DNA of 30,643 nt from assembly GCA_019358915.1 (NCBI GenBank), contig JAHHIM010000046.1:1-30643 (forward strand), in the 5' to 3' direction. Below the pieces are notes generated by a model. It was not told the origin of the DNA. It was given only the letters and a program-made list of their open reading frames with translations, and did no database searches. Both the position numbers and the translations under genes were made by a program. Positions 12,261 through 17,618 of the stretch are shown one piece after another (the first letter of the stretch is position 1; each line of letters begins with the position of its first letter). This stretch comes from Trichormus sp. ATA11-4-KO1 (lineage in GTDB: Bacteria > Cyanobacteriota > Cyanobacteriia > Cyanobacteriales > Nostocaceae).

Positions 12261-13457
12261 CTAGTATTTTAATTGACATGAGGTAGTTGTAATTTGAGAA
12301 AGTTCAGCAGAATTTTGTCCCCCAGTTGTGAAAAAGTCGCGAATAGTTTGAGCTAATGCCTTTGATGCCAAATAAGGTACACCATTACCAATTGTTTTAA
12401 ACATATTGGTGAGTGACATATCTTCTGGAAGTACAAAATTTGCCGGCAAAGATTGAATAGCTAAAGCTTCTGCTACAGAAATTCGGCGGATTTTGTAGGG
12501 ATGTAAATGTACTTCATTATTTCCATAGCAAGCGGTCGGAGAGTAACGCCATCTGTGCAGACGTTTGAAAGACTTCTTAGAGTCATCTCCTTCATCAACA
12601 GCAGCCAATCTGGTGATACCTGCCCTGGGTTTAAAATAATGTTGAGCATGAGGATGGTTCAACACATTATTTTTTCTAAACCAGTATTCAACTGTGAGTT
12701 CCTGAGGTATGCCTTCAGGACAAGCTAGAAACGAATTTTCTTGGAATGGTTCGCACTTTTGCCAAGGGTAATTAAAAACATGTTCTTGAGGATATAAAAT
12801 CTGTTTTTTCCAAGTAAATGCCCCTTCATGTAGTAGATGAACACTACTTTTTTCTATTCCCATATCATTGATTAAATTATCTCGGAAACCAATAAGAATA
12901 ATTCTTTCTCTATCTTGGGGTACACCGTATTCAATAGCATTAATTAACCGTTCTGTTAATATATAGCTTGCTTGGCTTAATTTCTGCTTCAACGATTCAA
13001 AAAATAAACGGTGTTTTTTCGTCCGCCATAAACCTTTGACATTCTCAAATAAAAAGAAATCTGGCAGATTTCGACAAATTAATTCTACGTATGCGGCCGA
13101 AAGTTTACCATTATCTCCTAAACTTCCTTTATTTTTTCCGCCAACCGAAAAATCAGGACAAGGAGGCCCACCAATAAAACCGACAATATTATAAGACTTC
13201 CGACAATTTTTGACTAATTCACAGAGACGTTGTGCTTCTACCCCTTCAATAAGGTTGCTGACGTCTGCTGCTTCCCCTTTACAATATCCATATTCTGGCG
13301 ATGGTAATTTCAGCACTTCCCGTGAATAACGGTATGCTGCCATAAATGGTTTAAATATTTCATTGACATAAACAATTTTAAACCCGCTAGTTTCAAAGCC
13401 TAAATCGAGGAATCCTGAACCAGCAAAAAAGGAGAAAATACAAGGATAAACACTCAT
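12261..13457 (-). CDS. DNA (cytosine-5)-methyltransferase, apparently solitary (DmtD/M.AvaIX, RCCGGY-type, is a candidate)
   Basis: FAGSG (motif I), GGPPCPDFS (IV), ENVKG (VI), QDRERI (VIII), IGNGVP (X). Specificity is recalled, not demonstrated. Confidence 0.9.
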   Translation of the reverse strand: MSVYPCIFSFFAGSGFLDLGFETSGFKIVYVNEIFKPFMAAYRYSREVLKLPSPEYGYCKGEAADVSNLIEGVEAQRLCELVKNCRKSYNIVGFIGGPPCPDFSVGGKNKGSLGDNGKLSAAYVELICRNLPDFFLFENVKGLWRTKKHRLFFESLKQKLSQASYILTERLINAIEYGVPQDRERIILIGFRDNLINDMGIEKSSVHLLHEGAFTWKKQILYPQEHVFNYPWQKCEPFQENSFLACPEGIPQELTVEYWFRKNNVLNHPHAQHYFKPRAGITRLAAVDEGDDSKKSFKRLHRWRYSPTACYGNNEVHLHPYKIRRISVAEALAIQSLPANFVLPEDMSLTNMFKTIGNGVPYLASKALAQTIRDFFTTGGQNSAELSQITTTSCQLKY

Positions 13458-13487
13458 TAAAAATCTGAATACATTAGCACAATTATA

Positions 13488-14129
13488 TTAATTATTCTCT
13501 AATCTCTCTCTCAGCCAATCTCGAAAATATCGTAAAGTAGCAGTCTCACCTTCAATTAAACTTTTTCTAATCAATTGAGGAATTACCTCTGCTGTGAGTA
13601 CAGAAAAAGTCGGACTTTGCTGTACTTGATTGTAAATTAAAATCGGCTCAGATAAAACGAAAAACTTTAACTCTCTGCCATTATAGCGCCAAAGTTCTGG
13701 AACACCTAAAGCAGCATAAATCGGGTGTTTATTTAAAGAACTGCTATTAATATCAATTTCAATAACTAAATCTGGTGGAGGGTCAAAGTTAAGATTAATA
13801 TCTTGTTTACCTCTTACCAAAGGCTCATTTTGAATATAATAACAAGAGTCAGGTTCTGCACCCCGCCGCATATCATCACGCTTCAGGGTTAAAGAACCAA
13901 ATTTTTTTAGATGCATATTTAATTGATCTGCTAATATCCGAATTAAATCATCAATAAATCTGTTAGTGTTCTCATGCTCTCCCAAGGGAGTCATAATTTC
14001 TAAATTGCCCTCGTTATATGCTAAACGTGTAGCTCGTTTGTCACCCAATTCTTCCAGAATGGCATTGAACGTGTGCCAACTGATGTTATGAAGAATCACT
14101 CTCTGTTCGGCTGAAGTCGCTGTCGTCAC
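13488..14129 (-). CDS. Uma2 (DUF820) family putative endonuclease
   Basis: LEIMTPLGEHE, AEPDSCYYIQ, PPPDLVIEID and YAALGVPELWRY motifs. Probable GTG start at 14129 after GGTGG. Confidence 0.92.
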   Translation of the reverse strand: MTTATSAEQRVILHNISWHTFNAILEELGDKRATRLAYNEGNLEIMTPLGEHENTNRFIDDLIRILADQLNMHLKKFGSLTLKRDDMRRGAEPDSCYYIQNEPLVRGKQDINLNFDPPPDLVIEIDINSSSLNKHPIYAALGVPELWRYNGRELKFFVLSEPILIYNQVQQSPTFSVLTAEVIPQLIRKSLIEGETATLRYFRDWLRERLENN

Positions 14130-14241
14130 TATAGTTTTCCACCAAACTATTTTTTTTAGAGCTTCATGCAAAGACGCTTAAGAGACACTTGGCGCGGAAT
14201 TCGCTGATGGGGGAGACCACGCCACTCACCTTTGCGCAAAA

Positions 14242-15684
14242 TTATCCTACAACTTCAGGCTGCACTTGTGGTGATAAACGCTTCACACCTTGCTTAACAA
14301 ACCCTGACAAAAAACCAATCTGCTGGTTTCGCTGAAAGACGTTCTGCAAAGTTTGTCGCAACTTGTCCAAATTCAAAGCATTTCCAGAATCTAGCGCTAC
14401 TTCCTGCTGTTCCAAATATTCAACTAAACTTAACCCTGCTACCCTGGTGAGATAAGCTGCACTCACACCCTGCACTAAACCACCAGCAACAAAGGTGATA
14501 GCATTACTTTTGAGAACAGTGCTCACAGCTTTTGTAGAAAGTTCCACTAAACCCAGTTTCAGCATCAAACTTCCCATTGTTCCCGCTACAGTTTGCGCCT
14601 GTTCCAGGGAAAACTTCTGTTGATAGATATTACCTAAATCTATGACCATCTGAGCATTAATTGCCGCAGTTGCCAGAATATCTAGCGCTGGTACTGGGTT
14701 AGCAAAAGCAGCCGCCGCAGTTATCCATTGATATTGTTCAATAATTGGGGTGCTGCGATCGCGTCTGGTTTCATTCAATAAATTTTTCGCTTCAGCTTTC
14801 AATAACTTGGCTTTTCTGGCGGTAGTTGTCCACACTAGATGCTGTCCTTGCTGTGCCAAAACTTCACTTAATTGCTGTGTTAACTGCTGAATATCTGGTG
14901 CTGGTTGTTCCAGCCACTCTTGTACAGTACCATCAGCTTCATGCTTCCGGACTTTCTGAGGAATGGGAGAGGCCGCAGTTGCCACTACATTTCCCGGCAT
15001 TCGCTGTTTTAATGACAGTAAGACACTAGCACGTTCGTCTGCTAAATACTGGTCTTGTTTGTTGAAAACTAAAATAGCAGGCTGATTTGCTGCTTTTAGC
15101 TGCTGTAAGCTTTGAAATTCCGAGTCTGTCAAATCACCGTTTGTCAGGAATAGCACAAAATCAGATTGTTGAAGTTCTACTAAAACAGCTGCATCTGCAT
15201 TTTCACCCGTTTCTCTAAACAAAGGTGATGTTTCCCAAAAGCTTACTTTTTGGTGTGTTTCTTGCCAACCGCTAGACTCTAGCACTTGAATTAAAGTACT
15301 TTTACCAACGGATTTTCCACCAGTTACAGCTAGTTTAATTTCTTGCCTATCTAACTCCAGGAATAATTGAGCAACTTGTTCTTGTAGTATCGCTATAGCT
15401 GTGTGATTTTCTGCCTCTTGTGCCAGTTGATTAATCACGGCTTCTGTTTTAGCGATCGCACTTTCCCCGGTAGCCCGATCTACAACCATACCATCTAGCT
15501 GCTCTAAACTATCTTGCGGGCGATTTTTCTGGAATAACCACAAACCACCACCGATAGCCAAGGCACTAAATAAACCAATTTCACTCAATTGCACAATTGA
15601 ATGATGCCAACTTTGTAATATCCACAGAGAAAAGGATAGTCCCAATCCTCCCACTAAAATCGGTCGCTGCAACTTCACAACCAT
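14242..15684 (-). CDS. YcjF/DUF697-domain protein with degenerate GTPase-like region
   Basis: N-terminal TM segments, GGKSVGKS P-loop, NKQD (G4-like), C-terminal NPVPALDILATAAINAQMV. Confidence 0.8.
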   Translation of the reverse strand: MVVKLQRPILVGGLGLSFSLWILQSWHHSIVQLSEIGLFSALAIGGGLWLFQKNRPQDSLEQLDGMVVDRATGESAIAKTEAVINQLAQEAENHTAIAILQEQVAQLFLELDRQEIKLAVTGGKSVGKSTLIQVLESSGWQETHQKVSFWETSPLFRETGENADAAVLVELQQSDFVLFLTNGDLTDSEFQSLQQLKAANQPAILVFNKQDQYLADERASVLLSLKQRMPGNVVATAASPIPQKVRKHEADGTVQEWLEQPAPDIQQLTQQLSEVLAQQGQHLVWTTTARKAKLLKAEAKNLLNETRRDRSTPIIEQYQWITAAAAFANPVPALDILATAAINAQMVIDLGNIYQQKFSLEQAQTVAGTMGSLMLKLGLVELSTKAVSTVLKSNAITFVAGGLVQGVSAAYLTRVAGLSLVEYLEQQEVALDSGNALNLDKLRQTLQNVFQRNQQIGFLSGFVKQGVKRLSPQVQPEVVG

Positions 15685-15725
15685 GATTCTCCGCGCTTTT
15701 TGTCAGGTTTCTCTTTCAGAATAGA

Positions 15726-16220
15726 TCAAAATTCCATCTCTCCATCTTGAACAGGCGAACAGACATACTTTTCTTTACCTATTTCTTCACCTACAGATGC
15801 TTGTAAGATTAACTCCCAAGCTTCACGATATTGTGCAGAACGAGGTTTGCGCTGTCGTTTGTTAGTCTCGACAAGGTGTATCTCACTACCATAATTTATG
15901 AACACATTTACCGGGAAGATATAGAATAAGTCAAGTTTTCCTATATATACCAGCGCAAAATCAAAGTCTGAACGCTTGTATGCTGCTCGAATCATGATCC
16001 GCCAATTTGTTTTAGTGCGGCGATTATCTACAACATAATTGCCAGAAGGTTCATCAAACCAAGCGTGCTTAACTTGAATTTTGACTAAAGTTCCTTCTAC
16101 ATCAAATACTAAATCTTAGGGTAGCCGATCACCAACAGGCTTTAAAACTCCCCAACCACGCTTTAAGGCATGAAAAACAGCAGCCTGTTCTGCTATGTCT
16201 CCTTTCAGCTTTGTATCCAT
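15726..16220 (-). pseudogene. I-Ssp6803I-like PD-(D/E)XK homing endonuclease gene, free-standing, with one in-frame TAA at codon 35
   Basis: ORFs 16116..16355 and 15726..15995 share a frame. Joined they read MDTKLKGDIAEQAAVFHALKRGWGVLKPVGDRLP*DLVFDVEGTLVKIQVKHAW...NYVVDNRRTKTN...DFDFA...YGSEIHLVETNKRQRKPRS...REAWELILQ, closely matching recalled I-Ssp6803I with D8/E11/D36/Q49/K51. Confidence 0.9.
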
Positions 16221-16236
16221 ATAGCTAATCATCAGC

Positions 16237-16283
16237 ATAAAACGAAGCCCTGTAAACTTTAATTTTACAGGGCTTCGTTTTAT
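16237..16283 (-). terminator. Long hairpin / intrinsic terminator downstream of tRNA-fMet
   Basis: Perfect 20-bp inverted repeat ATAAAACGAAGCCCTGTAAA (16237-16256) / TTTACAGGGCTTCGTTTTAT (16264-16283) with a 7-nt loop. Confidence 0.8.
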
Positions 16284-16291
16284 CTTCTGTT

Positions 16292-16616
16292 TGGTGGCGG
16301 GAAGTGGATTTGAACCACTGACCTTCGGGTTATGCTTACCAACTACAGTTTTCACTGCCCGGCTATTCCGGTTTGTGGTCTGGACTGTCCCTTCACCCTC
16401 GTCTTTTAATAACGTTAGGGTGCCTGCCTTCCAGTCTCTACACCTTCTTCATTTCTGAAGCTTGGTTCGGGATTACCGCGCTAATGGCTTCCCCGAGTTT
16501 GACAGGTAAACATACGCAAGTTTCTTCGCGTACCGCCCACTGTAAGACCAACTAATAAGCGCTTAGCGAACCTTACAATTCGAGCCCGACGAGCTACCAG
16601 GCTGCTCTATCCCGCG
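16292..16616 (-). tRNA. trnfM: Initiator tRNA-fMet (CAT), intron-containing: 5' exon 16583-16616, 3' exon 16292-16334
   Basis: Exons join to the 77-nt CGCGGGATAGAGCAGCCTGGTAGCTCGTCGGGCT|CATAACCCGAAGGTCAGTGGTTCAAATCCACTTCCCGCCACCA. Unpaired C1:C72, three G-C pairs closing the anticodon stem, encoded CCA. Confidence 0.97.
16335..16582 (-). ncRNA. Group I self-splicing intron (248 nt, no internal ORF) in the anticodon loop
   Basis: Inserted after U33 and ends in G. P1 GCUCG/UGGGC has the U.G pair at the 5' splice site. Core elements AAACTCGGGGAA (P), AATCCCGAACC (Q), GTAGAGACTGG (R), AAGGGACAGTCC (S). Confidence 0.95.
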
Positions 16617-16634
16617 TCGCTGTTTGACTTTTCT

Positions 16635-16664
16635 AGTATAACCACAAAGTTATAAGTTTGGCAA
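16635..16664 (-). promoter_or_regulatory. Sigma70-type promoter of trnfM
   Basis: TTGCCA-N18-TATACT ending 18 nt upstream of the tRNA 5' end. Confidence 0.65.
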
Positions 16665-17618
16665 CTATAACAGCGATAATTCTCCAACTACTTCTAAACG
16701 CTTGTATTTACCTAAAGTCATAAACTTCTCTGATAGGCTTTCGGCGGCGCTGGGGCTAATCCAACCCATCTGCTGGAGTACGTGGATAGCAACGGCATAT
16801 TTTGCCCGTTTGGCTCCATCTATGACTTTAATGGTCAATCCCATGCCTTCACCCAGCCTGCCAATGCATTGCACGCCTTCGGCACCAGATTTACTTACCA
16901 GTTCTCCTGGAGCTAAACGCATCAGTTCTGTGTCAAATTCTCCTTCTCCGGCTACCATCGCTGGATGATGCGTCATGGCACGGACAATCCGCTCCATATC
17001 GACATTGCTGCTAGAGGCTAGTAGCGCATACAGAGATGCCATTTGACTGATTTGCATGAGATAAGTTGGTGCGCCACAGTCGTCATGTGCGCTGAGAAAT
17101 TCTTCGGCTGGCATCCGCAGTAATTCTGCTACTTTACCCAAAATTAACTGCTGTACTGGGTGCTTGCGATCTAAGTAGTTATTTAAAGGCCAATGGCGTT
17201 GCTGACAAACGGCTAACATCCCCGCATGTTTACCAGAACAATTGTATTCCAAAGGACTTTTCTTACCTTGGGGAATTGGACATTGGAGTGCAGTTGGGTC
17301 AAGGTCAGCGCGCCACAGGATGTTAAATGCCTGTCTTACCTGTTCGATTGTGCCTTTGTGGGAACTTGTAATAATAGCTAAGTCGCGATCGCTGAGGTTA
17401 TAGCGCTCCAGTGTACCTGTGGTAGTGACTGCCAGTGCTTGAAATGGTTTGAGTGCGGAACGGACAAATGCAGCCGTTTCCGAGTTGCCGGCGACGGAAA
17501 GCACCCGTCCGCGTTCGTCGCATATAACAGCTTGGACTACATGCCTTGATTCAATAATTCCTTCTCGCAACAGCCGGACTTCTAGGGCTGTGGCTTGAGT
17601 TCGCTTTCCCATTGTCAT
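16665..17618 (-). CDS. L-asparaginase II family protein
   Basis: RSALKPFQA, NCSGKHAGM, DDCGAP and SKSGAEG motifs. Confidence 0.9.
   Translation of the reverse strand: MTMGKRTQATALEVRLLREGIIESRHVVQAVICDERGRVLSVAGNSETAAFVRSALKPFQALAVTTTGTLERYNLSDRDLAIITSSHKGTIEQVRQAFNILWRADLDPTALQCPIPQGKKSPLEYNCSGKHAGMLAVCQQRHWPLNNYLDRKHPVQQLILGKVAELLRMPAEEFLSAHDDCGAPTYLMQISQMASLYALLASSSNVDMERIVRAMTHHPAMVAGEGEFDTELMRLAPGELVSKSGAEGVQCIGRLGEGMGLTIKVIDGAKRAKYAVAIHVLQQMGWISPSAAESLSEKFMTLGKYKRLEVVGELSLL

Follow-up and report, generated by a model that had tools for sequence, protein, structure and literature searches.

A stretch of 30,643 nucleotides (nt) from Trichormus sp. ATA11-4-KO1 (GenBank assembly GCA_019358915.1, contig JAHHIM010000046.1; the whole stretch is referred to as the window) carries a tRNA-fMet gene split by a group I intron that contains no open reading frame (ORF), and a gene resembling that of the homing endonuclease I-Ssp6803I lies outside this intron, behind the tRNA. 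Both the protein and the intron are of the types of Synechocystis PCC 6803 (as that organism is treated in passages of PMC1995217, PMC3384342, and PMC3424549), whose tRNA-fMet group I intron is listed with a length of 655 nt and an ORF of 150 amino acids (PMC1995217, Table 1). The locus raises the question of how a nuclease and an intron of these types came to stand side by side, and whether they still spread together. The probable answer is a loose form of collaborative homing, i.e., a two-part selfish element that would have originated by the exit of the nuclease gene from an intron, and that appears dead in the genome of the window and alive in its family. The tRNA-fMet, the intron, and the nuclease gene are all located on the minus strand:

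16583..16616, minus strand: 5' exon of tRNA-fMet, 34 nt (read as 16616-16583)
16335..16582, minus strand: group I intron of 248 nt without an ORF, interrupting the tRNA between U33 and the CAU anticodon (Rfam RF00028; its core aligns with composite introns)
16292..16334, minus strand: 3' exon of tRNA-fMet, 43 nt, with the CCA encoded
15726..16220, minus strand: I-Ssp6803I orthologue (PF11645), by its sequence a pseudogene (TAA at codon 35, R73W, E94G), starting 71 nt after the CCA

The arrangement had been described in a sequence-only reading of the window, and it was confirmed in each particular: the 248-nt intron without an ORF, the nuclease-like gene starting at 16220, its distance of 71 nt from the CCA, and the common strand. 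The joined exons are recognised by ARAGORN as tRNA-Met(CAT), and the intron matches Rfam RF00028 above the gathering score (52.8 bits, E 6.8e-11), as expected of a group I ribozyme core. No ORF of the nuclease family was found inside the 248-nt intron, and the locus is therefore not a mobile composite group I intron, in which the endonuclease gene lies within, since here the gene begins 71 nt past the CCA. A BLAST search of the 5.97-Mb assembly disclosed no second copy of tRNA-fMet; since the gene is single, the splicing of the intron should be required for the start of translation.

When the internal stop is read as X, the window nuclease matches Pfam PF11645 (PDDEXK_5) with 171.4 bits against a cut-off of 26.1 (E 1.3e-50), and the structure of I-Ssp6803I (PDB 2OST) over residues 2-144 (E 7.2e-66). 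The internal TAA (16118-16116) corresponds to codon 35, where I-Ssp6803I has a Tyr directly before the catalytic Asp, and the final TGA is supplied by the host sequence TTTGATCTATTC. The gene of a genome of the same genus (G001) is open and differs from the window copy at 5 of 495 bases; four of these differences alter the protein, namely the stop, R73W, E94G, and C152Y. Among 125 open homologues, 123 have an Arg at residue 73, which is a Trp in the window copy. A PD-(D/E)XK active site in an open frame is hence missing from the window copy, owing to the stop at codon 35 and to R73W, and is found in 42 orthologues of the family. Judged from these changes, the window nuclease is a recent pseudogene, i.e., a dead copy. 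The stop at the Tyr codon 35 recurs in two other genomes, G069 and G207 (loci L188 and L161), so that it occurs in three genera.

The exon junction of the window, GTCGGGCT joined to CATAACCCGAAGG, is identical over 19 contiguous bases to the I-SspI target oligonucleotide listed in Table 1 of PMC2175346, in agreement with the site given in the earlier reading; by orthology and by this match, the target of the nuclease would be the intronless tRNA-fMet junction. The system of the window is therefore like I-Ssp6803I and its Synechocystis PCC 6803 intron in protein family, active site, insertion site, and target, with intron cores that align, and unlike it in that the gene is placed behind the tRNA terminator and not within the intron, in that the intron is ORF-less and 248 nt long, and in that the copy is broken.

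The association of the two parts was followed in samples of 251 genomes of the family, 401 genomes of the phylum, and 125 genomes of one genus (g74). The family and g74 samples share three genomes, and since kin are not independent, the Fisher tests of association (p about 5e-31) are not relied on. A nuclease was considered intact when it was open over at least 136 codons and retained D8, E11, D36, Q49, and K51, and the matches in the family were counted after the removal of two distant paralogues. In the family, 66 genomes harbor the intron and 69 a nuclease match; 55 have both, 11 the intron alone, 14 the match alone, and 171 neither. All 42 intact family nucleases are located behind an intron-split tRNA, downstream of a conserved ansA-trnfM block and mostly directly before DUF697. 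An intact gene beside an intronless trnfM, which the sequence-only reading had named as the observation that would speak against it if common, was encountered in none of the 42 intact cases in the family and in none of the 20 in g74, and the mapping of homologues relative to trnfM, which it had called for, resolved forms inside the intron and forms downstream, the intact downstream genes being always accompanied by the intron in both samples. The 14 matches without intron include 11 that are short or full of stops. Of the other three, G070 is devoid of E11, D36, and Q49, G021 has a frameshift near residue 103, and G155, at a contig end, is missing its initial 28 residues, the fetched stretch containing no tRNA.

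Within genus g74, the intron is present in 32 of 125 genomes, accompanied by an intact nuclease in 20, by a broken one in 9, and by at most a tail in 3. Among 40 fetched loci out of the 93 without intron, 31 share one clean empty junction, seven contain other inserts, and two hold broken genes; the same clean junction is found in four other genera too. From this empty junction it can be deduced that the nuclease gene was inserted directly after the terminator and borrowed its stop codon from the host. Close relatives carry alleles of each kind (full, intron-only, remnant, and clean empty), and every stage of gain, decay, and loss is represented among sequenced relatives. The host features surrounding the insertion in the window are the following:

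16665..17618, minus strand: asparaginase II (PF06089), upstream host gene forming the left flank
16635..16664, minus strand: putative promoter-like site 5' of the tRNA (TTGCCA, 18 nt, TATACT; 10 of 12 consensus positions matched)
16237..16283, no strand assigned: terminator-like 20-bp inverted repeat, a host feature that empty sites have too
14242..15684, minus strand: DUF697 (PF05128), downstream host gene forming the right flank

The intact nucleases are under purifying selection: the median pairwise ratio of nonsynonymous to synonymous substitution rates (dN/dS) is 0.082 for 41 of them (G003, without a full rpoC1, was left out), and 0.066, 0.147, and 0.028 for the host genes ansA, DUF697, and rpoC1, respectively. 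This result bears on two other explanations. The first is that the locus represents neutral debris or an artefact of assembly, as the pseudogene of the window might by itself suggest; it is hardly credible, given the dN/dS of 0.08 in relatives, the recurrence of this layout in dozens of assemblies independent of one another, and a contig of run X1 that spans the locus unchanged. Indeed, one X1 contig (depth 1026) covers positions 15500-16900 with identical letters, although X1 is possibly the source of the window DNA and contigs drop rare variants; no misassembly, another objection anticipated in the earlier reading, is indicated. For the family, this explanation is refuted, and it holds only in the sense that the window copy is dead. 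The second is that the protein was domesticated, the gene being kept as a helper of splicing or in another host role. Strong purifying selection and the strict association with the intron would fit such a role; however, 24 of the 66 intron-bearing genomes, including that of the window, have no intact copy, its loss being frequent, and the nuclease active site is kept in 42 of 42 intact copies, which makes domestication very improbable.

Evidence of movement comes mainly from genus g74. The tips of the flank tree show full alleles interspersed with empty ones, and the sister pairs G708/G637, G635/G622, G667/G641, and G683/G642 (bootstrap 97-100) have the insert of intron and nuclease as their sole difference; compared with the uniform empty site, these differences fit homing. 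A comparison of G705 with G652 shows 7 differences in 600 positions of the element, against 39 in 1000 for ansA, and a second nuclease lineage (six genomes, bootstrap 99) exists within the genus, apart from the main one. These observations must be weighed against the possibility of an old, mostly inherited locus, at which the nuclease would cut copies converted to the intronless state, repair would restore intron and gene, and spread to new lineages would be rare. Such a guardian role agrees with the mostly vertical trees, with a synonymous divergence of the nuclease near that of host genes, and with the remnants beside intronless tRNAs, which suggest that the intron was lost after the death of the nuclease; still, both parts have been transferred across and within genera, and full and clean empty alleles are interleaved among close relatives, so that we consider it unlikely.

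Several results also count against a concerted spread of intron and nuclease. The differences between sister pairs could be losses to the empty allele as well as gains; the trees of both parts largely track the host when genera are compared; no co-phylogeny beyond the host signal was detected (partial Mantel r -0.19, p 0.93); and the intron data fit the nuclease tree and the flank tree equally well in the approximately unbiased (AU) test (p-AU 0.52 and 0.48). Moreover, the intron of G018 resembles those of g74 (distance 0.025) while its nuclease resembles those of g5, and the comparison of G688 and G662 also discloses parts of different origin. In AU tests across gene trees, almost every alternative was rejected, even when one host gene was set against another, and these tests are thus uninformative on transfer. 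To judge from the trees, intron and nuclease are partners in a loose association whose parts reassort, not one tightly linked unit. The proposal that they spread together, put forward in the earlier reading, is therefore sustained in part: strict co-occurrence, selection, and single cases speak for it, while the absence of an overall co-phylogeny and the reassortment of the parts speak against it. Loose linkage and reassortment are in fact what might be expected of a split element, in which the intron, located at the cut, would always be copied, and the gene only sometimes.

Under loose collaborative homing, the downstream nuclease, like its orthologue I-Ssp6803I, would cut an intronless tRNA-fMet gene at the anticodon, while the ORF-less intron would split the target site and protect the copy of the host itself, as the co-occurrence of the two suggests. 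Repair from an allele bearing the element would copy the intron, and the nuclease as well if the conversion tract, presumably of variable length, reaches DUF697, about 0.6 kb away. The nuclease might be expressed at a low level by read-through of the terminator. The link would be a loose one, the intron often persisting alone, the nuclease decaying, and either part being swappable.

The origin of the split form can be approached from the distribution of the homologues and from the tail of the gene. Among genome loci (the best 80 of 219), 58 nucleases follow a tRNA-fMet whose intron is short (240-311 nt), and 22 are located inside an intron of 644-663 nt; among metagenome loci retrieved with an intron-encoded query (the best 80 of 232), 69 lie inside, seven downstream (one, L324, is the contig of the window), and four elsewhere, each set being biased toward its own query. 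The downstream genome loci are titled as cyanobacteria, except for L024 (uncultured bacterium) and L035, and the inside loci belong to other phyla or to unnamed bacteria. The sample of the phylum yielded seven matches outside the family of the window, six inside the intron (including the 655-nt Synechocystis type) and one downstream (G303, which groups apart). Plasmids gave no match to the nuclease; 45 phage records matched, each with less than 60% identity, and viral contigs contributed one locus.

The ORF of composite introns occupies the loop of the first hairpin, beginning some 10-35 nt past the 5' exon, and extends at its end into ribozyme sequence; many such ORFs continue through the helices P3 and P4, with protein tails such as SPVKFGEA. 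(The helices P2.1, P3, and P4 are named from the Rfam alignment and the standard nomenclature.) The downstream genes contain a decayed copy of P2.1-P3-P4 in the register of the composite introns, whose translation is SPVQFGEAGF in G169 and SPVQDGEMEF in the window:

15735..15778, minus strand: decayed P2.1/P3/P4 relic in the nuclease tail, weak in the window (1.4 bits in the shared register, p 0.11) and clear in relatives

A profile of the ORF-less intron cores matched 43 of 60 genes (59 downstream genes and the phage homologue) at nt 420-496, reaching at least 5 bits in 18 of the 60 and in none of 300 codon shuffles, and with a P3/P4 matrix applied to the tails, 27 of 43 family genes reached p<0.05. 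Since a ribozyme core would be unexpected in the tail of a gene that had never been in an intron, the direction was most likely from composite to split, and the downstream nuclease, as far as this relic allows one to judge, most likely left a composite intron. A fragment of such an intron, comprising the ORF and the start of the ribozyme core, might have landed behind the tRNA terminator, the ORF of the intron itself being lost; the relic is observed, and the order of these events is our reconstruction.

The opposite order, in which the downstream gene is ancestral and later entered the intron, as has been proposed for collaborative homing in phages, can be upheld by the existence of free-standing relatives adjacent to tRNA genes (the phage locus L244, and paralogues behind tRNA-Arg). 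It is strained by the ribozyme-core sequence of the downstream genes in the composite register, which L244 lacks according to the tail matrix, and by the occurrence of composite introns across many phyla, the downstream form being almost confined to cyanobacteria among the matches listed; we regard it as quite improbable, though a shade less so than domestication. Some of the data do weaken the case for an exit. Among the downstream genes taken from metagenome contigs and other cyanobacterial families, the P3/P4 relic is found in 1 of 11. A single clade of intron-encoded genes, which would suit the ancestral downstream gene, is not rejected (p-AU 0.144), and a second one-clade test gave the same outcome (p-AU 0.178). 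A quick protein tree had grouped 68 of 69 downstream rows (SH-aLRT 96), while a careful tree on 56 rows split them; the protein trees comprise 141 columns, with most deep forks open, and the intron-core tree, being unrooted, gives no direction. Since the protein trees neither confirm nor deny the exit, its direction is read from the relic. The fuller account, according to which the fission of a mobile intron formed a chromosomal element that is still active, the nuclease having left with a piece of the ribozyme, having been selected through the radiation of the family, and now driving its former host intron in trans, has in our estimate somewhat better than even chances.

Collaborative, or trans, homing has been described in phages, in sections of PMC3984707, PMC10055350, and PMC13565253 that deal with a cyanophage psbA intron and its free-standing nuclease and with T3/T7-like phages. 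The cyanobacterial locus agrees with those accounts in having an ORF-less intron at the target of the nuclease (here by orthology), the gene adjacent to it, and an active, intact gene only together with the protected allele; it differs in that the intron interrupts a tRNA gene on a chromosome instead of a protein gene of a phage, and in being known from sequence alone. The same reviews, in the portions concerned, treat collaborative homing either as a step toward the composite form or as being of unclear origin; the relic points from composite to split, the reverse of the route usually proposed there. In intronless homing by the free-standing nucleases Seg and Mob of T4, one of which, SegB, cuts tRNA genes (as outlined in PMC13565253), a free-standing gene likewise lies beside a conserved target gene, but the cyanobacterial element would protect itself by the intron and not by a changed target, the exons being unchanged. 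A literature search, which covered listings and the openings of abstracts, found no paper on a nuclease downstream of tRNA-fMet; Zhao 2007, Paquin 1997, Bonocora and Shub 2001, and supplements lay outside its scope, so that an earlier mention is possible, and no passage on fMet was found in PMC12702839. The protein and the intron being already known, it is the downstream arrangement on a chromosome, with a relic that would record the exit, which appears new. Its interest lies in a sequence fossil pointing opposite to the route of the phage reviews, on a bacterial chromosome and in roughly one genome in four across a large family, and in a possible reason for the scattered ORF-less tRNA-fMet introns of these cyanobacteria, whose driver might be next door.

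Other loci bear resemblance to parts of this system. Distant PF11645-like genes (L012, L013, L015, L016, and L017, at about 1345-2150; 31-33% identity) are open over 200-216 codons, have a C-terminal extension, and in several genomes of the family follow an intronless tRNA-Arg(TCT) at a distance of about 75-80 nt; they are a second group of tRNA-adjacent nuclease-like genes, in which no intron shields a site. On the viral contig, the free-standing homologue (L244:2001-2499) overlaps with its end the start of an intronless tRNA-Met whose anticodon-arm sequence is altered, which looks like intronless homing of the changed-target type. In L293:1-1279 and L273:1-1155, both short contigs, two diverged nuclease-bearing introns stand head to tail, hardly any exon or none separating them; such a duplication might be a route to the split form. 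L323:1432-2185 holds a composite intron in a tRNA-Met within a tRNA cluster, with an anticodon arm unlike the usual target, and in L078:3083-3220 a partial second copy (the first 46 codons of the nuclease) follows an intact downstream gene. L035, titled Acetobacteraceae, has the downstream form and clusters with genus g74 in the tree; it is probably a misbinned cyanobacterial contig.

As for the genome of the window itself, the coverage in the RNA runs X2 and X3 is limited to tRNA and intron pieces of other strains, with loose ends at the junction that are indistinguishable from intronless genes. ARAGORN without the intron option reports no tRNA in the window, and with it a Ser(cga), which is an annotation trap. 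A second intron-split tRNA of the genome (G000:C1:80951-81309), also called Ser by ARAGORN (a miscall), is 78% like the 248-nt intron over 67 nt, and its intron is presumably that of tRNA-Leu(UAA). Beyond DUF697, positions 12261-14171 of the window encode a C5 cytosine methyltransferase (PF00145) and a Uma2-family protein.
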